Positions 6,488 through 25,802 of a stretch of DNA of 51,038 nucleotides are shown in pieces (within the stretch, counting starts at the first letter, position 1; each line of letters begins with the position of its first letter). The stretch is from the IMG/VR virus record IMGVR_UViG_2778261009_000008, positions 1 through 51,038 of that record; one strand, given 5' to 3'. The stretch comes from a virus (taxonomy: Duplodnaviria; Heunggongvirae; Uroviricota; Caudoviricetes). The notes beneath the pieces were generated by a model that did not search any database, had not been told where the DNA came from, and worked only from the letters and a program-made list of their open reading frames with translations. Position numbers and translations under genes: made by a program.

Positions 6488-7456
6488 ATGAGCAGCAAGC
6501 TTCATGGTCTTGTCTGGGAAGGGTGCGCCTTCACCGGCATGATCTTATCCAGGGTGGCGGTTATGGCCCGTCTTGCAGACTACAGCAATGACGAGGGCGT
6601 GTCATGGCCTGCCATTGAAACTATCCGGCGTCAGATCGGTGCAAGAAGTGAATCCACCGTTAAATCTGCTATTGCAGAACTGGCGAAAGAGGGCTGGCTG
6701 ACGAAGGAAGAGCGTAAGGTCGGTGGGCGTAACGTAAGCAATATCTATCGGCTTAATGTGGAAAAACTCGAAGCAGCTGCAACTGCGGCGCGTGAGGCAT
6801 ATAAACCGAAAAGAAAAATTAGCCCGGCAAAAAATGACCCGTTAACAGTTAACCCGTCAAATATTGCCCCCTCAACGGTTGACCCGTCAAATGTTGATGG
6901 ATCAACGGTTGATAAAAAACTGCGTATTAGGGGGGCGATGATTGACCCCGATCCGTCAGTATTAAAACCTGATCCGTCAGATAAAAGATCTTCTTGTCCG
7001 GACGTTTCACTGCCGGACGAAAAACGATCATCACCAGTTGAGCGATTTCTGGAGAAACACCCAGATGCGCATACCTGGAATGTACCGAAGCGACAGTGGG
7101 GTACCCGTGAGGATGTCGCCTGTGCGCAGTGGATTTGGGGACGGGTTGTGGCGTTGTATGAACAGGCCGCCAGTGATGATGGTGAGGTGTCACGCCCCAG
7201 AGAACCTAACTGGACGACCTGGGCGAATGATGTGCGCATGATGCGTATGCTGGATGGACGTAGTCACCGGCAGATTTGTGAAATGTTTGGGCGTGTCCAG
7301 CGGGATTCGTTCTGGGTAAAAAACATCATGAGTCCGGCAAAACTCAGGGAAAAATGGGATGAACTGGTTATCCGCCTGGGGCGTTCGCCCGCGCAGCGTT
7401 GCGTAAATCACATTTCTGAACCGGACACTGAAATACCGCCGGGATTCAGGGGGTGA
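6488..7456 (+). CDS. Replication initiation protein (lambda O-like)
   Basis: About 322 aa; N-terminal winged-helix-like domain, central repeat-encoding linker containing DNA iterons, C-terminal domain; followed by a DnaC-like gene. Confidence 0.75.
   Translation: MSSKLHGLVWEGCAFTGMILSRVAVMARLADYSNDEGVSWPAIETIRRQIGARSESTVKSAIAELAKEGWLTKEERKVGGRNVSNIYRLNVEKLEAAATAAREAYKPKRKISPAKNDPLTVNPSNIAPSTVDPSNVDGSTVDKKLRIRGAMIDPDPSVLKPDPSDKRSSCPDVSLPDEKRSSPVERFLEKHPDAHTWNVPKRQWGTREDVACAQWIWGRVVALYEQAASDDGEVSRPREPNWTTWANDVRMMRMLDGRSHRQICEMFGRVQRDSFWVKNIMSPAKLREKWDELVIRLGRSPAQRCVNHISEPDTEIPPGFRG
6836..6995. repeat. Iteron-like direct repeats inside the O-like gene followed by an A/T-rich tract (candidate replication origin)
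   Basis: CCCGTCAAAT(A/G)TTG x2, TCAACGGTTGA x2, CCCGTTAACAGTTAA, then GATAAAAAACTGCGTATTA and GATCCGTCAG x2; mirrors the lambda arrangement of ori within O. Confidence 0.5.
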
Positions 7457-15395: not shown

Positions 15396-15407
15396 AAGAG
15401 GTGACTG

Positions 15408-15767
15408 ATGCTCATAGATTTGGTTTTACCTTACCCGCCAACGGTGAACACCTACTGGCGTCGTCGTGGCAGCACATATTTTATCTCGGAGGAGGGAAAG
15501 CGCTATCGCCGTGCTGTGGCGCTTATTGTTAACCAGCAGCGGCTGAAATTAAGCCTGTCCGGAAGGCTGGTAATCAGGATTATTGCAGAGCCACCGGATA
15601 AGCGCCGCCGTGACCTGGACAATATTCTGAAAGCGCCGCTGGATGCGCTTACGCATGCGGGGTTGTTAATGGACGATGAGCAGTTTGATGAAATCAATAT
15701 TGTGCGTGGCCTGCCTGTTCCTGGCGGGCGGCTGGGGATAAAAATCACAGAACTGGAGTGCGCATGA
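15408..15767 (+). CDS. rusA: Holliday junction resolvase RusA
   Basis: 119 aa; aligns with E. coli RusA including the catalytic block RRRDLDN…DAL…G…DD. Confidence 0.85.
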   Translation: MLIDLVLPYPPTVNTYWRRRGSTYFISEEGKRYRRAVALIVNQQRLKLSLSGRLVIRIIAEPPDKRRRDLDNILKAPLDALTHAGLLMDDEQFDEINIVRGLPVPGGRLGIKITELECA

Positions 15768-16447
15768 ATAACCAGTATTTACAGTTTGTTCGTGAGCAAC
15801 TCATGATTGCCACTGCGGATCTCAGTGGGGCGACAAAAGGCCAGCTGGAAGCCTGGCAGGAGAATGCCCTGTTCGATACAGGGCGTTACAGACGCAAAAA
15901 AATTCGTTATCGCGATGAGGTAACCGGAAAAATGATCACGCGGGATAATCCACCGATCCCGGGTAAACAATCACTGGCGAAAGGCTCATCAATTGCGCTG
16001 GTCAGTCCGGTTGAGTTTGCAACATCATCGTGGCGGCGTGCCGTTCTGGAACTGGAAGAACATCAGAAGGCGTGGTTACTGTGGTGCTACAGTGGAAATG
16101 TTTGCTGGGAAGATCAGGTCACTATAACACAATGGGTATGGGGTGAGTTTAAAGCTCAGGCTGGTACCAGAAAAATTGCAGGGAAAACGCTGGATCGTCT
16201 GAAGAAACTGATTTGGCTGGCGGCACAGGATGTGAAGAGTGAGCTGGCAGGGCGTGAGACCTATGAACATCAGGAGTTAGCGGTGTTCATAGGAGTTGCT
16301 AAATCTACATGGACAAAAACACACAGGCCTCACTGGTTGGCTATGCGGGGTAGTGCAGAGATGCTGGACAGGGATGCTCTTATTTCAGTAATGCGGGTAC
16401 GTTCACGGCAAAAGTCGCTTAATTTAGAACCATATCTTGCAAAATAG
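15758..16447 (+). CDS. Q-like late antiterminator (putative)
   Basis: 229 aa ORF directly after rusA, followed by a TATAAT hexamer and two intrinsic terminators; assignment rests on position, not on recognised similarity. Confidence 0.5.
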   Translation: MRMNNQYLQFVREQLMIATADLSGATKGQLEAWQENALFDTGRYRRKKIRYRDEVTGKMITRDNPPIPGKQSLAKGSSIALVSPVEFATSSWRRAVLELEEHQKAWLLWCYSGNVCWEDQVTITQWVWGEFKAQAGTRKIAGKTLDRLKKLIWLAAQDVKSELAGRETYEHQELAVFIGVAKSTWTKTHRPHWLAMRGSAEMLDRDALISVMRVRSRQKSLNLEPYLAK

Positions 16448-16516
16448 AACTGAAGAGCATATATTCCGTGTAAATCTGATATTTTGCAGATTTTGTACGC
16501 GATGGCAAAGTAAGCA

Positions 16517-16543
16517 AACCCCGCCGCCGAGCGGGTTTTTTGT
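16517..16543 (+). terminator. Intrinsic terminator downstream of the Q-like gene
   Basis: GC-rich hairpin CCCGC-CGCCGA-GCGGG followed by TTTTTTG. Confidence 0.6.
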
Positions 16544-16562
16544 TGGCTTAACAGGTTATAAT
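16530..16562 (+). promoter_or_regulatory. Candidate late promoter (pR'-like) with consensus -10 TATAAT
   Basis: Perfect TATAAT at 16556-16561 with a weak -35 (TTGTTG) about 17 bp upstream; the upstream edge overlaps the T-run of the preceding terminator. Confidence 0.35.
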
Positions 16563-16743
16563 GTACAGTGCGAAACTGCCTGTTCAGCAGAATCATAGAG
16601 TGTTGACTGATACTGTCGCTGTACCCTGATGGGACTTGTGAGACTTCCGAACTGGAAGCCAGGAGTAGCAATAAGGTGATGACAAGCCTGCTGCCCTGTG
16701 TAAAAGGCACCTTAATGGTGCCTTTGTCGTTTTTATCAAAAGA

Positions 16744-16768
16744 TCCCCGCCACTGGCGGGTTTTTTAT
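16744..16768 (+). terminator. Intrinsic terminator (tR'-like)
   Basis: Hairpin CCCGCC-ACTG-GCGGG followed by TTTTTTA, about 190 nt downstream of the TATAAT. Confidence 0.6.
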
Positions 16769-16889
16769 GCCCGAAAAACGGCACAGGACGTTAAACGCGC
16801 TGGTGCTCGTGAATAGCGACCTTTCATCTTGCTGGCTTTTTCGACAAGAGTTATTGGTGTGTCACGTTAACCGGAAAAGGGAAAAAGAC

Positions 16890-17087
16890 ATGCTGAAACA
16901 GCAGGATATGACAGAAACCGCCAGAGTGGTGTTTAATGAATTAAGCGTCACCGAACCGGCGACAGTCGGGGAGATTGCGCAGAATACTTACCTTTCACGC
17001 GAACGCTGCCAGTTAATACTGACCCAGCTGGTTATGGCGGGGCTGGCAGACTATCAGTTCGGTTGTTACAGACGCCTTCAGTCCTGA
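16890..17087 (+). CDS. Small winged-helix-like DNA-binding protein
   Basis: Shorter start MLKQQDMTE chosen because the longer ORF (16767) would begin inside the terminator; 65 aa with HTH-like segment (…PATVGEIAQNTYLSRERCQLILTQLV…). Confidence 0.45.
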   Translation: MLKQQDMTETARVVFNELSVTEPATVGEIAQNTYLSRERCQLILTQLVMAGLADYQFGCYRRLQS

Positions 17088-17100
17088 AGGCTTTTTTATT
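17074..17100 (+). terminator. Intrinsic terminator
   Basis: Inverted repeat GCCTTCAG/CTGAAGGC followed by TTTTTTATTT. Confidence 0.5.
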
Positions 17101-17237
17101 TGTGGTAAATGGGCGGCTGGTGGGTGTTAGGGGCACTCACCAGCCATCTGCTCATGCGTCAGGATCACAAGCAAACCTCAGGCCCACTGCTTTGCGCAAA
17201 AGCAGAATGAGCCTATCAGAGACAGGCTTAATGATCC

Positions 17238-18296
17238 ATGCTTAATACTGTAAAAATATCCAGTTGTGAGTTAATCAACGCTGACTGCCTGGAATTTATC
17301 CGGTCGTTACCCGAAAATTCTGTTGATCTGATAGTCACGGACCCGCCGTACTTTAAAGTGAAGCCTGAGGGCTGGGATAACCAGTGGAAGGGCGACGATG
17401 ATTACCTGAAGTGGCTGGACCAGTGTCTTGCGCAGTTCTGGCGGGTGCTGAAACCTGCCGGAAGTCTTTACCTGTTCTGTGGCCATCGCCTGGCATCTGA
17501 TATCGAAATCATGATGCGTGAACACTTCAGTGTGCTGAACCATATTATCTGGGCAAAGCCGTCCGGACGCTGGAACGGGTGCAACAAGGAAAGCCTGAGG
17601 GCGTATTTCCCCGCCACAGAGCGCATTCTGTTCGCGGAACATTATCAGGGGCCGTATCGCCCGAAAGATGCCGGGTATGAGGCGAAGGGCAGGGCACTGA
17701 AACAGCATGTGATGGCCCCGCTGATTTCTTACTTTCGTGATGCGCGTGCTGCCCTGGGGATAACGGCAAAACAGATAGTGGATGCCACAGGAAAGAAAAA
17801 CATGGTGTCGCACTGGTTCAGTGCCAGCCAGTGGCAGTTACCGGACGAAAGCGATTATCTGAAATTACAGGCGCTGTTTGCCCGGGTGGCAGAAGAGAAG
17901 CATCAGCGCGGAGAACTGGAAAAGCCACATCACCAACTGGTCAGCACATACAGTGAACTGAACCGGCAGTATACGGAACTGCAGAGTGAATATAAGCATC
18001 TGCGGCGGTATTTCGGTGTGACGGTGCGGGTGCCGTACACCGATGTGTGGACGCATAAACCGGTGCAGTACTATCCCGGGAAACATCCGTGCGAAAAACC
18101 GGCAGAAATGCTGCAGCAGATAATCAGTGCGAGCAGTCGTCCGGGTGACCTAGTTGCAGATTTCTTCATGGGGTCGGGTTCGACAGTCAAAGCAGCGATG
18201 GTGTTGGGGCGTCGTGCTACAGGCGTTGAGCTGGAGACTGAACGTTTTGAGCAGACGGTCAGGGAAGTTCAGGATTTAGCCAGCCAGAACGGATGA
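17238..18296 (+). CDS. DNA methyltransferase (N6-adenine/N4-cytosine class, DPPY motif), orphan
   Basis: 352 aa; catalytic motif IVTDPPYF; no adjacent restriction endonuclease gene visible. Confidence 0.85.
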   Translation: MLNTVKISSCELINADCLEFIRSLPENSVDLIVTDPPYFKVKPEGWDNQWKGDDDYLKWLDQCLAQFWRVLKPAGSLYLFCGHRLASDIEIMMREHFSVLNHIIWAKPSGRWNGCNKESLRAYFPATERILFAEHYQGPYRPKDAGYEAKGRALKQHVMAPLISYFRDARAALGITAKQIVDATGKKNMVSHWFSASQWQLPDESDYLKLQALFARVAEEKHQRGELEKPHHQLVSTYSELNRQYTELQSEYKHLRRYFGVTVRVPYTDVWTHKPVQYYPGKHPCEKPAEMLQQIISASSRPGDLVADFFMGSGSTVKAAMVLGRRATGVELETERFEQTVREVQDLASQNG

Positions 18297-18336
18297 TATT
18301 GCAGGATTAGTTACGTACCGTTATTATCCTGCGCCC

Positions 18337-18412
18337 GGCCCTTTAGCTCAGTGGTGAGAGCGAGCGACTCATAATCGCCAGGTCGCTGGTTCAAATCCAG
18401 CAAGGGCCACCA
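18337..18412 (+). tRNA. tRNA with anticodon CAT (Met, or Ile2 if lysidine-modified)
   Basis: Hand-folded cloverleaf: acceptor GGCCCTT/AAGGGCC, D-arm GCTC…GAGC, anticodon loop CTCATAA, T-arm GCTGG-TTCAAAT-CCAGC, encoded CCA. Confidence 0.85.
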
Positions 18413-18421
18413 TATCACATA

Positions 18422-18498
18422 CCGCCATTAGCTCATCGGGATAGAGCGCCAGCCTTCGGAGCTGGCTGCGCGGGGTTCGAGTCCTCGATGGCGGTCCA
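18422..18498 (+). tRNA. tRNA-Arg (anticodon TCG)
   Basis: Hand-folded cloverleaf: acceptor CCGCCAT/ATGGCGG, anticodon stem CCAGC/GCTGG with loop CTTCGGA (U33, G37), T-loop TTCGAGT, encoded CCA. Confidence 0.8.
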
Positions 18499-18776
18499 TT
18501 ATCTGCATCATGCGTTGTTAGCTCTGATGAGTGAATCATTGTCTTTTGAGCAACAGGCTATCATATAAGATAGTCTCAGATTTCCTTGTTTATTCTCGCC
18601 GGATGCTTCGTAGATATTTGCAGGCATCTGTATGCAGGGGTATTATTGCGGCATATATCATCCGGAAAAATAAAAACTACATGCTGATCCGGAGATGATA
18701 GTTACAAGTCCTCCCGGATCCCGCATATTTACTATATTTTATAGATAATTGTTCTTGTTAATATGGAGATGGATAA

Positions 18777-19205
18777 ATGTATTGCCGTGCTGTACCGGTT
18801 CTTGTTTTGATATTAGCCAGTCTGACAACTGGCTGCACAAAAGATGTATCGACAAATAATTATGATGCTTCGCTGCATCACTCAGATAAATTAATAAAGT
18901 CGCAAAATTTGAGCTTATCGGAACGTACCCCTGATGCCAGTGAAGAAATCCGGCAGTATGCCATTCAGGTCAGGGAAGCCATAGAAGAACAGTTAAAGGA
19001 TGCGGGTAAGTATTCAGGAAAAGAGTGTTCACTGAGAATGTATATGGCCCCGAATGGTCTTCTGCTACAGGTTAAAAGAGAAAGCGGTGATCCCGATTTA
19101 TGTCGTGAAGCGATGAATGCAGTAAAGAATGCTGATATACCATCACCACCGTCTTCAGGAGTATATAAAGCATTTAGAAATGGCGTGCTGGATTTTAAAC
19201 TCTGA
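18777..19205 (+). CDS. Lipoprotein with TolA C-terminal domain (domain III)-like fold
   Basis: 142 aa; signal peptide plus lipobox-like LTTGC; C-terminal about 90 aa align with E. coli TolA domain III (…YSGKECSLRMYMAPNGLLLQVKRESGDPDLCREAMNAVKNADIPSPPSSGVYKAFRNGVLDFK…). Confidence 0.7.
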   Translation: MYCRAVPVLVLILASLTTGCTKDVSTNNYDASLHHSDKLIKSQNLSLSERTPDASEEIRQYAIQVREAIEEQLKDAGKYSGKECSLRMYMAPNGLLLQVKRESGDPDLCREAMNAVKNADIPSPPSSGVYKAFRNGVLDFKL

Positions 19206-19261
19206 CTGGGGGAGAAGATTTTCTCCTGTCCAGATGATTTTGGGGTGCTGGAAAGATATTG

Positions 19262-20640
19262 TGCTGTGAAGTGTTAAATTCCTCACAATTCAGTAAGTTG
19301 ACAGTTGCCTGTCAGACTGGGCATTTGTTAAAAAAATTTCGCATGGTGAATCCCCCTGTGCGGAGGGGCGACTGGTGAACGGTATGATCTCTTTGATGAT
19401 CGTAAGCGAGAATACGCGGGTTTAGTGTCACCGGGCTGAACTCACCGGGAGGCACCCGGCACCATGCTCATGGTGATACAGAAATGCGGCTTCAGCCCCT
19501 CTCTGGAGGGGCTTTCTTATGGACAAAAAAGCCCGCGCTGGGAGACGCGGGCGGCAAGGAATAAACAATAAAACGTGAAGTAATATTTCAGCTGGCGAAT
19601 AATACCCCATAGTAATCACTCTGCGCAACTGCGCGGCCTTTTTCGAATTGCGGGCTGTAGTCTCCCTTCTGCCGGGTGGCCTGGTTGCAGATTTCTTCAT
19701 GGGGTAGGGTTCGGCAGTTAAAGCAGCGATGGCGCTGGGGCGTCGTGCTATAGGCGTTGAGCTGGATACCGGGCGTTTTGAACAGACTGCGCAGGCAATC
19801 AGGGATATATTTATCGGTAGCTGTTTGCAGAAGTAATCTCCCAAAATTCCATTTTTGGAATGCAGTGGTTGTTGCTGTAGTGTGGGCAAGTTCTGGAACT
19901 GGCTTCGTCCATTGCAGATGATTGTTAGCTGGATATCAGTTACCTCATGGAAATGTTAAATGACTCACAGTTCGGTTGATGGACTATTGTCTGATTGATG
20001 GAAGTCTTGTAAAAACGAGCCAGCATAGTGAATCCCCCTGTGCGGAGGGGCGTCTGACATGGTCTCCATAGCGATGGTCACAATACGCAGATTCAGTAGT
20101 CAGGCTGAATCTACCGGGAGGCACCCGGCACTATGCTGCTTATGGTGTATACACAGCGATCGGCCCCTCTCCTGAGGGGCTTTTTTTGTGCGGGAAAAGG
20201 CTGTGTTGTGAAATGTTAAATTCCTCACAATTCATGAGGTTGATGATTGTCTGATTGATGAGGAGTTTGTTAAAAAAAGCGGGCATGGTGAATCCCCCTG
20301 TGCGGAGGGGTGATATCGTATCATTTCCTGTGTGGTCGACTGATATCACGGACATTTGTTCACCGGGAGGCACCCGGCACCATGTAGTATACAGAGATTA
20401 GGCATACATCCAGGCTCCTCATTGCAGGAGCCTTTTTACATGCAAAAAAAACCGCTCCAGGGAAGAGCGGTTGGCAAGGAATAAATAACAAAACGTGAAG
20501 TAATTTATTCAGCGCCCTAATAATACCTTACAGTAATCACATTGCGCAACTGTATGTAAGGGCGTATTTCTTTTTTGCGGGCTGTTTTGTGTGACTTTTG
20601 TGTTTCCGGAGGTCAGCCCGTGCCTTCTCTGACTCAGAAC
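19262..20640. repeat. Triplicated non-coding module (conserved blocks A-B-C plus hairpin, three tandem paralogous copies)
   Basis: Block A (GAAATGTTAAATTCCTCACAATTCA) at about 19270/19949/20210; block B (GTGAATCCCCCTGTGCGGAGGGG) at 19347/20028/20287; block C (CACCGGGAGGCACCCGGCACCATG) at 19443/20112/20361; each followed by a GC hairpin (T-run clear only in copy 2); an about 80-bp block D at 19554 and 20473. Confidence 0.6.
19681..19835 (+). pseudogene. Duplicated 3' fragment of the DNA methyltransferase gene
   Basis: About 125 bp near-identical to 18156-18290 (the C-terminal 47 codons of the 17238-18296 gene) with a TCG to TAG change; no start or upstream gene body. Confidence 0.7.
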
Positions 20641-20662
20641 ATTATTCCGGCCGGGAGGATTC

Positions 20663-22651
20663 ATGGCATTTAAACACTACGATGTGGTCAGGGCGGCATC
20701 GCCGTCAGACCTTGCTGAACGACTGACACAAAAACTGAAGGAGGGGTGGCAGCCATTTGGCAGCCCTGTCGCCATCACGCCTTATACCCTGATGCAGGCT
20801 ATTGCGGCGGAAGGTGATGTCACCACGCCGGTGCTGGTTAAACCATCGGGTGACGGGGAGACGGCTATCAGCAAGACCGGTGAGCCTGAATATTATTATG
20901 TTGTCGCGCTGGCGGGTCAGTCAAATGGTATGTCTTTTGGAGAGGGAGTACCGTTACCTGATTCTTATGATCGCCCTGATCCGAGAATTAAGCAGCTTGC
21001 CCGTCGACGTACCGTTACGCCGCGAGGCGTTCCCTGCACCTATAACGATGTTATTCCGGCAGATCATTGTCTTCATGATGTGATGGATATGAGTGAAAAA
21101 AATCACCCCCGGGCAGACCTCAATAAAGGTCAGTATGGTTGTGTGGGTCAGGGACTGCATATTGCCAAAAAACTGTTACCGTTTATACCGGCGAATGCGG
21201 GCATTCTTCTGGTTCCATGCTGTCGTGGAGGCTCGGGAGTGACTACAGGTAATGAGGGAACATTTAACGCCTCTTCCGGGGCAAGCCCTGATTCTGCATT
21301 GTGGGGAGCTGATAAGCCGCTGTACCAGGATCTGTTAAGTCGCACGAAAGTCGCGCTGGCTAAAAATCCCGGAAATATCCTGCTGGCGGTAATCTGGATG
21401 CAGGGGGAGAGTGATCTGGCTTCAGGAAGCCAGAGTCATAATGCTCTTTTTACTGGCATGGTACAGAAATTCCGTGCTGACATCGCTGATATGTCAGGGC
21501 AGTGCGTGGGGGGCTCGGCACTGAGCGTTCCGTGGGTTTGTGGCGATACGACGCATTACTGGAAAGAAAAATATGCTGCGTCTTATGAAACTGTATACGG
21601 TGGATATAAAAATAAGGCAGCGCAGAATATTCACTTTGTCCCTTTCATGGTTGATGGAAGCGGGGTAAATGTGCAGACCAATAATCCGGCAGAAGATCCT
21701 GATATTGAAGGTATTGGCTACTCCGGTTCGAAGTGGCGAGACAGTTCTGTCAGCTGGACGTCAGGTGACAGGGCAAGCCATTTCGGTTCATGGGCGCGGC
21801 GTGGAATTATTTCAGATCGTCTTGCAACCGCAATTCTGACCCACGCAGGCAAATACCCGGCGTTTATCACCGGGCGGTCAGAAACGGTAGTTGCAGGAGA
21901 TGAACGGGAAAACGTTACATCCGGAGATTTCCCGTCACCTGTGGAGGATGCTGCGTTATCACAGGATGCACCTCAGAGAAGAACGGTTGTTGAGTATAAT
22001 TCAGCTGTTGAGAAAGACAGCCTCGGTGGTAACTGGGCAGCCCAGCACTGGAATGCCCGGGACGGTGTCGCCGAGTTTGTTAATGATGAAAGCAGACAGG
22101 TGCTGAAGATTAAGCAGCATGAGGGCAAACAGGGACCGTGGATGCTGTCAGCAGGAGTATCAGCTGAAGATGCCCGTGCTCTGTATGAAAATGGCGGTGA
22201 AATAAAACTTGAATTCAGGTTGCCGGATGGTACCCAGGTTGCAGATAACAAATACCTCTTTGGTGTTTACCTGCCAGTTTCCGGGTGGACTCAGGAAGGC
22301 AACAGCAGCAATATGATGGCCTCCTTTTTCACTCAGACAAAAGCCAGTAACCTGGATGTCATGTATCACGGTAAAACACAGCCTAATACAAAAATTGAGT
22401 CATTCGGTGCGGTTAATAACAACTGGCACACGCTTGTCTTTAAATATAAAGGAGGCGGCAATCACCAGGTTATTCCGGTACTTGACGGAGAAGAGAAAAC
22501 AGGTTTTGCACTGAAAGAAGGTCCGGTCACTTCTGCCTTTACGGTGGATAACATCACAGTGACAGGTATCAGCGCAAATCAGGGAAAATCTTATCCTGTC
22601 ATGTTCCGCAGTATCATGGTAAGCATTAACCAGGCAACCTCTTCATCATAA
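20663..22651 (+). CDS. Sialate O-acetylesterase, NanS-p-like (DUF1737 + SGNH esterase)
   Basis: 662 aa; N-terminus MAFKHYDVVRAAS… and esterase block YYVVALAGQSNGM; matches the prophage nanS-p gene that follows stxAB in Stx phages. Confidence 0.8.
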   Translation: MAFKHYDVVRAASPSDLAERLTQKLKEGWQPFGSPVAITPYTLMQAIAAEGDVTTPVLVKPSGDGETAISKTGEPEYYYVVALAGQSNGMSFGEGVPLPDSYDRPDPRIKQLARRRTVTPRGVPCTYNDVIPADHCLHDVMDMSEKNHPRADLNKGQYGCVGQGLHIAKKLLPFIPANAGILLVPCCRGGSGVTTGNEGTFNASSGASPDSALWGADKPLYQDLLSRTKVALAKNPGNILLAVIWMQGESDLASGSQSHNALFTGMVQKFRADIADMSGQCVGGSALSVPWVCGDTTHYWKEKYAASYETVYGGYKNKAAQNIHFVPFMVDGSGVNVQTNNPAEDPDIEGIGYSGSKWRDSSVSWTSGDRASHFGSWARRGIISDRLATAILTHAGKYPAFITGRSETVVAGDERENVTSGDFPSPVEDAALSQDAPQRRTVVEYNSAVEKDSLGGNWAAQHWNARDGVAEFVNDESRQVLKIKQHEGKQGPWMLSAGVSAEDARALYENGGEIKLEFRLPDGTQVADNKYLFGVYLPVSGWTQEGNSSNMMASFFTQTKASNLDVMYHGKTQPNTKIESFGAVNNNWHTLVFKYKGGGNHQVIPVLDGEEKTGFALKEGPVTSAFTVDNITVTGISANQGKSYPVMFRSIMVSINQATSSS

Positions 22652-22798
22652 AACAAAAAAAACGCCAGCGCAGAGGAGAACGGGAGGATAAGTTTGACGC
22701 TGGCGGAGGAGTATCCTCATGGAGAACGATATGTAACACATATCGCCTTTCTTTTATTGAAAAGTCATCGCCATTGTCAACCATAACGGTAAGAAACT

Positions 22799-22981
22799 AT
22801 GACATTTGTTCATCAACTGATGCTGTACTTCTGTACGGTGGTATGCGTGCTGTATCTTCTTTCGGGTGGGTACAGAGTCGTGCGCGATTTCTGGCGCAGG
22901 CAGATTGATAAAAGGGCCGCTGAGAAAATCAGCGCCAGTCAGTCAGCCGGAAGCAAACCCGAAGATCCGCTCATTCCGTAG
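22799..22981 (+). CDS. Hypothetical small membrane protein
   Basis: 60 aa ORF with one hydrophobic helix (LMLYFCTVVCVLYLL) between the esterase and lysis genes. Confidence 0.35.
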   Translation: MTFVHQLMLYFCTVVCVLYLLSGGYRVVRDFWRRQIDKRAAEKISASQSAGSKPEDPLIP

Positions 22982-23018
22982 TCACTTTCTTGACAACACC
23001 TTTCAACGAGAAAATCCT

Positions 23019-23362: not shown

Positions 23363-23578
23363 ATGTACCAGATGGAAAAAATCACAACAGGTGTGTCATA
23401 CACCACGTCAGCGGTGGGAACGGGCTACTGGATCCTGCAGTTGCTGGACAGGGTTTCCCCGTCTCAGTGGGCGGCAATAGGCGTGCTGGGGAGTCTGCTG
23501 TTTGGGCTGCTGACATATCTGACGAACCTGTATTTCAAAATTAAAGAAGACCGGCGTAAGGCGGCGCGGGGAGAGTAA
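23363..23578 (+). CDS. Holin (lambdoid S / EssD-like, class II)
   Basis: 71 aa with two TM segments and a charged C-terminus (…[13 protein letters not shown]), immediately upstream of the lysozyme gene. Confidence 0.85.
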
Positions 23579-23582
23579 GCTG

Positions 23583-24116
23583 ATGAGCAGGAAACTCCGC
23601 TATGGTTTATCGGCTGCCGTTCTGGCGCTGATTGGTGCAGGGGCGTCTGCGCCTAAAATCCTCGACCAGTTTCTGGATGAAAAAGAAGGCAACCACACCA
23701 CGGCATACCGTGATGGCGCGGGTATCTGGACCATCTGCCGTGGAGCCACCCGGGTGGATGGTAAGCCTGTTATTCCTGGCATGAAGTTGACGAAGGAAAA
23801 ATGCGACCAGGTTAACGCCATTGAACGTGATAAGGCGCTGGCATGGGTGGAGAAAAACATCAAAGTGCCACTGACCGAACCCCAGAAAGCGGGTATTGCG
23901 TCATTCTGCCCGTATAACATTGGCCCAGGTAAGTGTTTCCCGTCGACGTTTTATAAACGAATTAATGCAGGCGATCGCAGGGGAGCGTGTGAGGCGATTC
24001 GCTGGTGGATTAAGGACGGTGGCAGAGACTGCCGTATTCGCTCAAATAATTGCTATGGTCAGATATCCCGTCGTGACCAGGAGAGCGCGCTGGCGTGCTG
24101 GGGAATCGACAGATAA
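23583..24116 (+). CDS. Endolysin (phage lysozyme, GH24, signal-anchor type)
   Basis: 177 aa; N-terminal hydrophobic SAR-like segment and lysozyme catalytic region (…EGNHTTAYRDGAGIWTICRG…). Confidence 0.85.
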   Translation: MSRKLRYGLSAAVLALIGAGASAPKILDQFLDEKEGNHTTAYRDGAGIWTICRGATRVDGKPVIPGMKLTKEKCDQVNAIERDKALAWVEKNIKVPLTEPQKAGIASFCPYNIGPGKCFPSTFYKRINAGDRRGACEAIRWWIKDGGRDCRIRSNNCYGQISRRDQESALACWGIDR

Positions 24117-24414: not shown

Positions 24415-24909
24415 ATGAACCGCGTTCTGTGTGTGGTCATTATTGCCTTGCTGGTGGCCTGTGGTGCGCTTAGTCTGGGGCTGAATCATTACCGTGATAA
24501 CGCCATCACCTACAAAGCGCAGCGCGATAAAAAAGCCAGAGAGCTGGAGCTGGCAAACGCAACCATTACTGACATGCAGCAGCGCCAGCGTGATGTTGCT
24601 GCGCTTGATGCCAGATACTCAAGGGAATTAGCCGATGCGAGAGCTGAAAATGAAACTCTGCGTGCTGATGTTGCCGCTGGTCGTAAGCGCCTGCGGCTCA
24701 ACGCCACCTGCCCCGGTACCGTGCGTGAAGCCACCGGCACCTCCGGCGTGGATAATGCAACCGGCCCCCGACTGGCAGACACCGCTGAACGGGATTATTT
24801 CAACCTCAGAGAACGGTTGATGACAATGCAGAAGCAGCTGGAAGGGGCGCAGGAATATATACGCACTCAGTGCACTAAGCTGGCTTTTTATTATCCGGAG
24901 GATACATGA
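24415..24909 (+). CDS. Rz: Spanin inner-membrane subunit Rz
   Basis: 164 aa; strong alignment with lambda Rz (…[16 protein letters not shown]…[14 protein letters not shown]…[23 protein letters not shown]…). Confidence 0.85.
24635..24820 (+). CDS. Rz1: Spanin outer-membrane lipoprotein Rz1 (embedded in Rz, +1 frame)
   Basis: 61 aa; aligns with lambda Rz1 (…[11 protein letters not shown]…[27 protein letters not shown]…); lipobox VSAC. Confidence 0.8.
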
Positions 24910-25460: not shown

Positions 25461-25802
25461 GTGCCGGGAATGAAAATGAAAAGAAATCTTCCGTTAATTA
25501 TTTTGTTGTCTTCTCTGGTTATGGGCTGTACGCAACATAAAACAGATATGCCCCGACAGTTGGTTAAGGCATTACCACAATATCCGGCCTATGCAGCGGC
25601 AAATTATATAAAGGGACGGGTTGATGTGAAGTTTGATATTGGTGCTGATGGTACTGTCACCCGAATTGAGTTTATCCGTTCAGAGCCGCACCATCTGTTT
25701 GATGAGCAGGTTGTAAAGGCGATGGCAAAATGGCGATTTGAGAAGGACAGGCCGCGTAAAGGCGTGAAGAAATCGTTTATCTTTAGTCCTTCTGCACCCT
25801 GA
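25461..25802 (+). CDS. Lipoprotein with TonB C-terminal domain-like fold
   Basis: 113 aa; signal peptide with lipobox-like LVMGC; …LPQYPAYAAANYIKGRVDVKFDIGADGTVTRIEFIRSEPHHLFDEQVVKAMAKWRFE… fits the TonB_C signature. Confidence 0.7.
   Translation: MPGMKMKRNLPLIILLSSLVMGCTQHKTDMPRQLVKALPQYPAYAAANYIKGRVDVKFDIGADGTVTRIEFIRSEPHHLFDEQVVKAMAKWRFEKDRPRKGVKKSFIFSPSAP

Follow-up and report, generated by a model that had tools for sequence, protein, structure and literature searches.

A predicted prophage lipoprotein built on TolA domain III in the stx slot, a candidate decoy for Tol-dependent import

What might a lambdoid prophage gain from a free copy of the tip of the host protein TolA, placed where Stx phages carry their toxin genes? 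The question arises from a small gene in the window, by which we mean the whole 51,038-nucleotide stretch of viral DNA analysed here. An earlier note had described the product as a lipoprotein with a lipobox cysteine whose C-terminal domain follows host TolA residue for residue, and had placed the gene in the stx slot, at a late moron position just past the tRNAs. Its functional suggestion, a decoy against Tol-dependent import or a disturbance of Tol-Pal, is a hypothesis that has gained support. The descriptions have stood up, as has the remark that no prophage decoy built on TolA domain III (TolA-III) has been characterised: a full-text literature search found no paper on such a TolA-III lipoprotein, the apparent matches being to host tolA or to author names. 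One item of background fared less well, since the direct contact between TolA-III and Pal cited there is disputed (review PMC7391070).

The cassette in the stx slot

Positions 16746-18524 of the window, and those from 19283 onward, align by blastn with the Stx2a phage WGPS2, and the 758 bp in between exactly take the place of the 1,441 bp argO+stx2A+stx2B of that phage (Table 1). Slot and flanks are thus those of the stx2AB cassette of Stx-converting lambdoid phages, the methylase and tRNAs lying to the left, and the nanS-p esterase with the lysis genes to the right. The two cassettes are also alike in being low-GC, rare-codon-rich cargo adjoining phage tRNAs, whereas the cargoes themselves are unrelated, and the TolA-III gene was found in none of the Stx phages of the phage collection searched. 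Its GC content is 42% and its GC3 34%, as against 52.6% GC for the window; ATA accounts for four of its six isoleucine codons and AGA or AGG for four of its eight arginine codons. The first of the adjoining tRNAs (CAU) is labelled Met by ARAGORN and tRNA-Ile by PGAP. The gene is a moron-like cargo, that is, a discrete and compositionally deviant insertion between conserved phage genes. Another moron, ompC, is annotated in a near-identical reference prophage but is absent from the window, whose tail end differs.

With Q upstream, the gene is placed in the late operon, tR′ probably corresponds to the terminator-like hairpins at about 16520-16760, and late, Q-dependent transcription can be inferred. 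A single weak promoter-like site (18617-18646) lies in DNA without counterpart in the other subtypes of the gene, and the 50 nt directly upstream of the gene, which are conserved with subtype b, contain no convincing −35/−10 pair by eye. Downstream, a terminator scan returned hairpins at 19306-19323 and 19494-19513. The protein may be made only after induction, in which case protection of the cell from colicins would be of little use; such protection needs expression in the lysogen.

Table 1. Coordinates of the TolA-III lipoprotein gene, its parts and its neighbours in the window
Feature	Position	Strand	Basis
Antiterminator Q	15758..16447	+	PGAP annotation, ORF
DNA methyltransferase, conserved left flank common to Stx phages	17238..18296	+	ORF, PGAP, blastn
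ileZ-like tRNA(CAU) and tRNA-Arg(TCG), directly upstream	18337..18498	+	ARAGORN, PGAP
Low-GC cassette replacing argO+stx2A+stx2B of Stx2 phages	18525..19282	+	blastn breakpoints against Stx2a_WGPS2; GC dip
TolA-III lipoprotein gene (stop codon included)	18777..19205	+	ORF, 142 aa
Predicted lipoprotein signal peptide, residues 1-19, and Cys20 (lipobox L-T-T-G-C)	18777..18836	+	PS51257-like pattern
Disordered linker between anchor and domain, residues 21-52 (~33 residues)	18837..18932	+	AF2 pLDDT <50 for residues 15-50
TolA domain III, residues 53-142	18933..19202	+	Pfam, PDB alignment, AF2, Foldseek
SASA-family sialate esterase (nanS-p / yjhS-like), conserved right flank common to Stx phages	20663..22651	+	
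Holin, 3′ of the esterase	23363-23578		
Lysozyme, 3′ of the esterase	23583-24116		
Rz, 3′ of the esterase	24415-24909		
TonB C-terminal-domain lipoprotein (lipobox LVMGC)	25476..25802	+	ORF; Pfam TonB_C E=8e-15; lipobox regex

A TolA domain III behind a lipoprotein signal

The open reading frame begins at the first start codon of its frame, an ATG with GGAG 7 nt upstream. The predicted signal peptide, MYCRAVPVLVLILASLTTGC, contains Arg4 in its n-region, and residues 10-20 (VLILASLTTGC) fit a PROSITE-PS51257-like lipobox pattern. In E. coli, Asp at position +2, next to the lipidated cysteine, is an inner-membrane retention signal. Here the three E. coli subtypes all have Thr rather than Asp directly after the cysteine, so release to the outer membrane is predicted. 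The lipobox cysteine is conserved in >90% of 35 diverse relatives, and a lipobox is present in 51 of 69 short representatives of the family. On these sequence criteria the protein is most likely an outer-membrane lipoprotein. The segment between anchor and domain often contains, in relatives, an 'EVDDLF' motif resembling the one that precedes domain III in full-length TolA homologues.

The remainder of the protein matches the Pfam profile PF06519 (TolA_C) over residues 53-140 (E=3.4e-22; 78.9 bits, cutoff 25; positions 8-96 of the 96 in the profile), and the TolA-III chains 1s62, 3qdp, 2x9a and 1tol of the PDB are matched at E about 1e-24. Residues 55-141 align without a gap with E. coli TolA 334-420, with 44 of 87 positions identical (51%) and both disulfide cysteines retained (C84 = C363, C109 = C388). 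The AF2 model has a pLDDT of 88-96 for residues 51-142, while residues 1-50 are disordered, and, showing the alpha/beta fold of TolA-III with its three-stranded sheet, it superposes on 2x9a_B with a TM of 0.94 and 0.7 Å rmsd; 3qdr_A gives E=9e-12, and the top Foldseek matches are all TolA-III. The profile search and the superposition, both suggested in the earlier note as checks, agree with it, and the similarity far exceeds chance.

Within the domain, the edges through which TolA receives its ligands deserve a closer look. Strand beta3 (residues 135-141) ends in LDFK, and L138-D139-F140-K141 are identical to L417-D418-F419-K420 of TolA. The beta3 edge of TolA is the docking site for g3p, ColN and TolB, and the substitutions D418P or K420P abolish binding of all three (PMC4339652). 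The edge of beta2 (residues 96-104) is retained in part. Colicin A contacts TolA-III through beta2, K379 and K396, and K368, which pairs with Tyr58 of ColA, is essential for the stability of the complex (PMC3365938). Two of these three lysines are retained (K100 = K379, K117 = K396), with Y89 in place of K368; across the three E. coli subtypes the equivalent of K368 is Tyr, Asn or His.

For all this likeness in fold, disulfide and beta3 edge to host TolA-III (PF06519; 1S62, 3QDP, 2X9A, 1TOL), the protein is not a TolA. It comprises 142 residues as against 421 and has no transmembrane segment: the place of TolA domain I, which couples to TolQ and TolR, is taken by what is predicted to be a cleavable lipoprotein signal peptide, and that of the long Ala/Lys/Glu-rich helical domain II, which in TolA reaches across the periplasm, by the short disordered linker. 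In contrast to host TolA, it would not couple to TolQR or the proton-motive force, and its predicted lipid anchor would lie in the opposite membrane. The model NF007065 gives it 99.8 bits (cutoff 213), matching positions 298-386 of 387, and TIGR02794 gives 72.6 bits (cutoff 59.45) by way of its C-terminal quarter only (positions 270-361 of 362). The gene also lies outside any tolQRA-tolB-pal operon, in a lambdoid prophage between Q with the tRNAs and the lysis genes. PGAP nevertheless names it 'tolA', and its PHROGs entry, PHROG 5772, is labelled as of unknown function.

Distribution, relatives and colicin neighbours

With 'distant' blastn the gene was found in 897 of 5,426 complete E. coli genomes (16.5%). 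Since this search does not match all 5,426, the gene is evidently unlike host tolA at the DNA level. Among the three E. coli subtypes dN/dS is 0.23-0.30 for the domain and higher, 0.39-0.60, for the linker, and the gene is under purifying selection. A recent capture from E. coli tolA was considered and rejected, on the grounds of the missing DNA similarity, the GC3 of 34% and a neighbour-joining tree that groups the clade with other short proteins. In that tree the full-length TolAs cluster together and the short proteins branch outside them in many deep lineages, but with only 88 columns and no bootstrap this is weak evidence.

The short TolA-III lipoproteins fall into at least 51 clusters at 50% identity, encoded in Q-holin intervals of prophages, on Klebsiella IncF plasmids, on chromosomes and at colicin A-like loci; the gene of the window belongs to a large, overlooked family and is not the oddity of one prophage. 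Five prophage contexts were found (the window, E. coli subtype b, mEp460, a Rac-like prophage and a Salmonella prophage), always between Q and holin, and mEp460 and the Rac-type prophages contain two diverged paralogues in tandem. The idea that all members reside on mobile elements had to be dropped, as two conserved chromosomal loci exist; the members there lie in conserved housekeeping neighbourhoods, without a link to mobile elements or colicins. An association with a microcin-type exporter on the Klebsiella plasmids was likewise discarded, being present on one plasmid only and absent from two others. A member within an F tra operon (P0170) was seen on two metagenomic contigs only and is absent from PLSDB.

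Three diverged members, with 45-58% mutual identity, adjoin genes for diverged colicin A-like pore-forming colicins. In one of these colicins the TolA-binding region is recognised by Pfam as ColA_N and in another a ColA-like stretch is visible by eye, while the third resembles colicin A at its N-terminus and pore domain only. One pair lies on an island of Pseudescherichia vulneris. Another is on an 8-kb Col plasmid of Enterobacter sp., which has its own immunity and lysis genes, and the remaining one on pMS-37d of E. hormaechei, where the TolA-III gene forms one operon with genes for the 'entry exclusion' lipoproteins Exc1 and Exc2. On the two small Col plasmids the TolA-III gene and the adjoining colicin A-like gene lie on opposite strands, and both plasmids have an Exc2-family gene beside the former, with Exc1 in addition on pMS-37d, an arrangement that recalls colicin immunity genes and the Exc1/Exc2 genes of ColE1-type plasmids. 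Immunity proteins, however, work at the inner membrane, where they neutralise the toxic domain, whereas the TolA-III protein would intervene sooner, during import, and irrespective of the pore domain.

The prophage of the window contains a counterpart for the other import system, a lipoprotein with a TonB C-terminal domain (Table 1). This TonB_C lipoprotein is also found in phage 21 and in Stx1a phages, and in 1,616 of the 5,426 E. coli genomes (about 30%). A natural lipoprotein, P0050, even fuses TonB_C to TolA_C. PADLOC-DB gave zero matches for the TolA-III lipoprotein, the TonB_C lipoprotein or the mEp460 paralogue.

Possible functions of the free domain

The reading we favour, drawing on sequence, structural model and analogy and held with about even confidence, is that the protein is a putative periplasmic decoy of the TolA tip which would block Tol-dependent import. 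The linker of ~33 residues would hold the disulfide-bonded domain just below the porins and receptors that group A colicins and g3p use for threading. There the beta3 and beta2 edges would capture TolA-binding epitopes (those of the colicin A, N, E1 and K types and of g3p-N1) by beta-strand augmentation. Since domains I and II are absent, the protein could neither couple to TolQR nor transmit force, and the captured colicin or g3p would be stranded at the outer membrane. Such ligands bind TolA more tightly than TolB does, at about 1 µM (ColN) as against about 40 µM (PMC4339652), so that a limited quantity of the decoy could stop the invaders while largely sparing Tol-Pal. With the very high expression to be expected of Q-dependent late transcription, it would titrate TolB as well, loosening the outer membrane. 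Together with the TonB counterpart it would confer an import-level tolerance covering both entry routes of colicins and phages. This reading gains from the identity of the beta3 LDFK and the retention of two of the three ColA-contacting lysines, from the three diverged members adjoining colicin A-like colicins and from the parallel TonB lipoprotein in the same prophage. On the other side, an identity of only 51% to host TolA-III does not guarantee binding, the lysine essential for the ColA complex is replaced, some members are ordinary chromosomal genes, PADLOC is silent and the candidate promoter for expression in the lysogen is weak.

There are precedents for parts of such a mechanism. Levengood-Freyermuth in 1993 and Wan and Baneyx in 1998 are said to have found that E. 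coli exporting TolAIII to the periplasm becomes tolerant to colicins and phage, and leaky. Periplasmic TolAIII is in use as a leakage construct (PMC6195910). The engineered protein is likewise a free domain III, but it is an artificial, soluble and overexpressed copy of the host domain, whereas the prophage protein is natural, diverged, predicted to be lipid-anchored and under selection on mobile elements. Two small lipoproteins encoded by phages or prophages, Cor (phi80, N15 and HK022) and the exclusion protein Llp (T5), act at the outer membrane's inner leaflet to block the entry of phages and colicins. Both plug the outer-membrane receptor FhuA and are related to the TolA-III lipoprotein in neither sequence nor fold; the latter would instead mimic the tip of the transducer and capture the invader or TolB. 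A further analogy is the g3p of filamentous phages, which reportedly renders cells tolerant to colicins and to superinfection (Boeke, Model and Zinder in 1982). The interface, g3p-N1 with TolA-III, is the same, but the situation is the mirror image: there a phage ligand saturates host TolA, while here a copy of TolA would saturate the ligand.

The late position of the gene can also be read as a sign of Tol-Pal sabotage, which we consider unlikely. Anchored TolA-III made in bulk would titrate the N-terminus of TolB, TolB-Pal complexes would stay undissociated with Pal kept off the cell wall, and the outer membrane would loosen or vesiculate, which would help the cell to lyse and virions or cargo to escape; in a milder variant, Tol-Pal stress would lead by way of Rcs and a colanic-acid capsule to broad phage resistance. 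All five prophage contexts are Q-to-holin sites, and the slot is that of the late-driven stx; yet morons are in any case readily accommodated in the Q-S interval, and the lysis cassette of the phage is already complete, with holin, endolysin and Rz. Overproduced periplasmic TolAIII reportedly causes leakage of periplasmic proteins (Wan and Baneyx in 1998). TolA beta3 mutants that have lost TolB binding show a full tol phenotype, but TolB binds TolA-III weakly, at 40 µM (PMC4339652). Help with lysis cannot be the general function of the family, given that chromosomes and plasmids, among them a Col plasmid with its own lysis protein, also encode members.

Similarly improbable, in our estimate, is that the fold serves a different partner, be it the entry protein of some other phage, a tailocin or contact-dependent toxin, CpoB or an outer-membrane protein, or that the protein tunes envelope physiology, a role that the chromosomal members may also have. 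The deep short-protein lineages of the tree, the housekeeping neighbourhoods of the chromosomal members and the variability at the K368 position between subtypes would fit such a role, and the tandem diverged paralogues of mEp460 and the Rac-type prophages suggest different specificities. Nevertheless, beta3, where docking is known to take place, is the same as in TolA, the neighbours of colicin A type point to the classical ligands and no neighbouring gene suggests an alternative one. That the gene is an inert piece of tolA captured by a phage, or a misannotated pseudogene, is suggested by the PGAP name, by copies sometimes flagged as partial and by many frameshifted database variants, but is effectively refuted by the dN/dS of the domain (0.23-0.30), an open reading frame intact in hundreds of genomes, a lipobox cysteine conserved across a family diverging to about 30% identity, DNA of 34% GC3 without detectable likeness to host tolA, and an N-terminus that is a new lipoprotein signal rather than TolA sequence.

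Returning to the decoy, it might be one instance of something broader, although we put this forward only tentatively and with the balance somewhat against it: mobile elements of the Enterobacterales may widely deploy free TolA-III and TonB C-terminal tips, anchored in the outer membrane or secreted, as a generic immunity at the level of import. Colicins of groups A and B, and phages dependent on Tol or Ton, would then be caught in the periplasm, at a stage where immunity to the particular toxin is not yet required. Prophages would carry the transducer tips as conversion genes (in 16.5% and 30% of complete E. coli genomes), tips at colicin A-type loci would provide a second, import-level immunity, and those of F-type conjugative plasmids would make up for the exposure to pilus-specific filamentous phages that comes with having a pilus.

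As things stand, the 'TolA' label in thousands of annotations hides the gene for this lipoprotein. If the decoy reading is true, about one in six E. coli genomes, many STEC included, would blunt Tol-dependent colicins, with the TonB counterpart present in ~30%, and competition in the gut by means of colicins would be affected. This would bear on the use of colicins against STEC in cattle and food and on phage-display and M13 tools in wild strains. Textbook accounts of colicin immunity would gain a second layer that does not depend on the toxin, and the copies on prophages, Col plasmids and F plasmids would come under one logic.

The lipoprotein and its place in the prophage

The TolA-III gene, on the + strand, lies exactly where the earlier note had put it, in position and length alike; the first start of the frame is an ATG with a GGAG 7 nt upstream. 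The signal peptide with a lipobox-like cysteine is likewise borne out, as the protein begins with MYCRAVPVLVLILASLTTGC, its residues 10-20 conform to a lipobox pattern of the PROSITE-PS51257 type and its n-region holds Arg4. In E. coli the residue at position +2 of a lipoprotein governs Lol-dependent outer-membrane sorting, and since this residue is Thr the sequence predicts such sorting for the window protein. The Pfam TolA_C model matches residues 53-140 along its full length (E=3.4e-22; 78.9 bits, cutoff 25), and residues 55-141 correspond without a gap to E. coli TolA 334-420 in seven PDB sequences (E about 1e-24). The alignment to domain III is thus indeed residue for residue, with 44 of 87 positions identical and both disulfide cysteines retained. 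The AlphaFold2 model has a pLDDT of 88-96 at residues 51-142 and below 50 at residues 1-50, and with this model every top Foldseek match in the PDB is a TolA domain III (2x9a_B, TM 0.94, 0.7 Å; 3qdr_A, E=9e-12), TonB C-terminal domains ranking far below. The two computational checks that had been proposed, profile search and structure prediction, both confirm TolA domain III.

The window, a lambdoid prophage, has near the TolA-III gene 100% identity to prophages of several STEC isolates, among them S19-651 (NZ_CP075852.1; identity over 18300-19500). Downstream of this stretch (about 19500-51038) it diverges from NZ_CP075852.1, with small indels in the repeat region, and both the IS600 insertion and ompC annotated in the tail region of that prophage are absent. 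A megablast of window 15400-23000 against phage genomes yielded 375 records, Stx-converting phages in the majority, whose matches are flanks with stx2A and stx2B annotated in between. Compared with Stx2a_WGPS2, homology ends at 18524 and restarts at 19283, 46 nt past the stx2B stop; 758 bp carrying the TolA-III gene therefore replace 1,441 bp with argO, stx2A and stx2B. The claim that the gene occupies the toxin slot, just after the tRNAs, is literally correct. In composition the cassette stands out as an island: its gene, with a GC content of 42% (GC3 34%; window 52.6%), uses ATA for four of six Ile and AGA/AGG for four of eight Arg codons, and adjoins a phage tRNA reading ATA. The only promoter-like site for the gene is weak and not conserved.

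The tRNA at 18337-18412 is a Met tRNA (anticodon CAT) according to ARAGORN and a tRNA-Ile according to PGAP, the latter of the ileZ type that reads AUA once lysidine-modified. A segment of ~240 bp that trails stx2B in Stx2 phages is present in about three copies between the TolA-III and esterase genes, each bearing GC-rich, terminator-like hairpins, and a methyltransferase gene fragment (19672-19787) lies amid them. Past the tail-fibre genes, another envelope moron (49483-50475, +) encodes a protein of 331 aa that has a YadA-like trimeric-autotransporter anchor.

Features of the window prophage and of loci (L) and proteins (P) carrying relatives
Feature	Location	Strand	Remarks
Q antiterminator	window 15758-16447		then terminator-like hairpins
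DNA methyltransferase	window 17238-18296		upstream of tRNAs
tRNA-Ile(CAU), tRNA-Arg	window 18337-18498		directly before TolA-III gene
TolA-III lipoprotein gene	window 18777-19205	+	ORF, 142 aa
stx2B-trailing segment copies	window 19283-19520, 20023-20185, 20225-20313 (and 20359-20386)
SASA sialate esterase	window 20663-22651		after repeats that trail TolA-III gene
DUF1378, DUF826, holin, lysozyme, Rz			in that order, beyond SASA sialate esterase
TonB_C lipoprotein gene	window 25476-25802	+	108 aa, lipobox LVMGC, Pfam TonB_C E=8e-15
Tandem TolA_C lipoprotein	L002 6580-6975 (mEp460); L007 7547-7921 (E. coli 1506)		FVAGC lipobox; Pfam TolA E=1e-14
119-aa secreted TolA_C protein	L005 6902-7261		K. 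pneumoniae plasmid pJinyinhai1_3; many similar plasmids
tra-operon TolA_C gene	L016 7001-7414; L017 5018-5431		two metagenomic contigs only
Exc2-family/TolA_C block	L029 2446-4204 (pMS-37d); L025 1696-2595		divergent from colicin A-like gene
P0050 domains	TonB_C residues 47-114; TolA_C residues 142-233

A family annotated as TolA

PGAP labels the gene 'tolA: cell envelope integrity protein TolA' and adds a GO transport term. The NCBIfam TolA models align to the window protein only in their last quarter, the stricter one scoring 99.8 bits against a cutoff of 213, and transmembrane domain I and helical domain II are both absent. The 'TolA' label on 142-aa lipoproteins in RefSeq is a systematic misannotation which hides the family. 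In PHROGs the protein belongs to phrog_5772, of unknown function, and PADLOC gave no defence-system match for it. PGAP at times flags intact relatives as 'partial, missing N-terminus' (L007 7115-7375).

Among 5,426 complete E. coli genomes a 'distant' blastn found the gene in 897, with almost every copy on the chromosome, and never matched host tolA; it is therefore a common, diverged cargo rather than a recent tolA fragment. Signal peptides differ among the three E. coli subtypes (MYCRAVPVLVLILASLTTGC, MYCRGLPVLVLIFACLTAGC and MGFRSASILTLIISGIIIGC). The IPAPPSP codons of the mEp460-type gene contain a C7 run (L007 about 7310-7320; proteins P0019-P0029), right at which many database variants are frameshifted into a common tail, ...RRKYIKYFKMGCWILNP; sequencing error or slippage could account for this.

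When 1.84 billion representatives were scanned exhaustively with HMMER, 292 matched. Among the best 150 of these, 69 are 115-165 aa long and 51 of the 69 have a lipobox, the remaining short ones being fragments or proteins with an ordinary signal peptide. Aligning 35 diverse short members shows the lipobox Cys to be >90% conserved and, in many of the linkers, an 'EVDDLF' motif resembling the one before domain III of full-length TolA homologues. Members occur in Serratia, Kosakonia, Klebsiella, Enterobacter, Dryocola and Pseudescherichia. In a rough neighbour-joining tree (88 columns, no bootstrap) the full-length TolAs form one cluster and the short proteins split into many deeper lineages, with the E. 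coli prophage clade nested among them.

In prophages the gene sits in the interval from Q to holin: in the window, in E. coli subtype b (after tRNAs or an AraC-like gene), in mEp460, in a Rac-like prophage and in a Salmonella prophage, where the domain shares 51% identity with that of the window protein. In mEp460 and the Rac-like prophage a second, strongly diverged TolA_C lipoprotein follows in tandem, directly upstream of holin. A family query matched 717 plasmid records in all; on Klebsiella IncF plasmids a lipoprotein type is carried by 322, of which 240 are conjugative MPF_F, and Klebsiella IncF/IncR plasmids also encode, convergent with psiA, a secreted 119-aa type whose signal peptide is ordinary (ALA-DD) and lacks a lipobox. 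Once, a 137-aa TolA_C protein is encoded within an F-like tra operon, after traM, traA (pilin), traL and a truncated traF-like ORF, a type absent from PLSDB; this site is suggestive because filamentous phages attacking F-type pili need TolA-III. A distant E. coli TolA_C lipoprotein (P0238, locus L012) has a YadA-anchor gene, Mig-14 and an Ail/Lom-type barrel in its vicinity.

Colicin neighbours and a TonB counterpart

TolA-III genes adjoin genes for colicin A-type colicins in three places. On a Pseudescherichia vulneris island the colicin has 438 aa (Pfam Colicin E=2e-35, ColA_N above cutoff). An 8-kb mobilisable Col plasmid of Enterobacter sp. combines a TolA-III gene with colicin, immunity and lysis genes in the layout of the colicin A operon, and on E. 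hormaechei pMS-37d (complete, 6.85 kb) tolA-III is the last gene of an operon with exc1 and exc2, divergent from the colicin gene. The three TolA-III proteins are mutually only 45-58% identical, and two of the colicins compared 25-33%; two colicins begin MPGFNYGGGVGDGT.WS.ERG, presumably the TolB-box region of colicin A. As colicin genes are rare, three such neighbours in roughly a dozen lineages examined, a count without a formal statistic, are a specific association. The gene for the TolA_C lipoprotein, on small ColE1-like colicin plasmids, trails that of an Exc2-family lipoprotein, on pMS-37d also exc1, and the role of the poorly understood Exc proteins may be connected with it.

The window prophage has a second lipoprotein gene of this kind, directly following Rz, which encodes a TonB_C domain and is probably the TonB-side counterpart. 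Phage 21, Stx1a phages and CP-933N-type prophages carry it as well, as do 1,616 of the 5,426 E. coli genomes; the literature searched gave no function for it. P0050, a natural 235-aa lipoprotein (LTGC) from two metagenomic contigs, fuses TonB_C (E=3e-12) to TolA_C (E=2e-32), a link of the Rosetta-stone type between the two lipoproteins.

Docking edges and possible functions

The g3p-N1 domain of filamentous phage, colicin N and the TolB N-terminus all use beta3 of TolA (A415-K420), to which they bind by beta-strand augmentation; either D418P or K420P destroys this binding and results in a tol phenotype, and affinities are about 1 µM for colicin N and about 40 µM for TolB (PMC4339652; PMC7391070). 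Colicin A uses the edge opposite to this, beta2 (L375-P380), where K368, K379 and K396 make cation-pi contacts with it (PMC3365938). Of the TolB and Pal contacts ascribed to the domain in the earlier note, the former stands (beta3 docking, PMC4339652) and the latter is contested (PMC7391070). In the window protein beta3 (L138-D139-F140-K141) is identical to that of TolA, beta2 reads LLQVKR against LLDIKP, K379 and K396 are retained, and the K368 position is Tyr (in the other subtypes, Asn or His). When TolAIII is exported to the periplasm, E. coli reportedly becomes leaky and gains tolerance of colicins and of filamentous phage (Levengood-Freyermuth 1993; Wan & Baneyx 1998). The use of exported TolAIII is documented in PMC6195910.

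We consider the chances about even that the lipoprotein serves as a decoy for TolA-binding epitopes. A TolA tip tethered to the outer membrane and uncoupled would catch such epitopes on their entry into the periplasm, the 40-fold difference in affinity would permit protection by amounts that leave Tol-Pal unharmed, and the late-transcription burst would further loosen the outer membrane. Deliberate sabotage of Tol-Pal seems to us unlikely. The Enterobacter sp. Col plasmid, which bears a lysis gene as well as the TolA-III gene, argues against release as the core function of the family. Another partner or role is also doubtful. Ordinary chromosomal loci of Klebsiella michiganensis and relatives have members too, so that the family cannot be seen solely as a weapon of mobile elements. 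Among the three E. coli subtypes the domain has a dN/dS of 0.23-0.30, and signal peptide plus linker one of 0.39-0.60, which indicates purifying selection; an inert fragment is highly improbable.

The TolA-III domain, its fold and its artificial dominant-negative effect are already known, as are phage exclusion lipoproteins acting on outer-membrane receptors, such as Llp and Cor. The full-text literature searched, which most subscription journals lie outside, contained no characterised prophage TolA-III decoy, in keeping with the earlier note, which knew of none, and no natural mobile-element-encoded TolA-III or TonB-CTD tip so used. Group A and group B colicins, and many phages besides, have TolA and TonB as their two gateways. 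With TolA_C and TonB_C lipoproteins in one prophage, the tips of both envelope energy transducers are thus found on a single element, and the TolA-III lipoprotein is widespread yet mislabelled in annotation.
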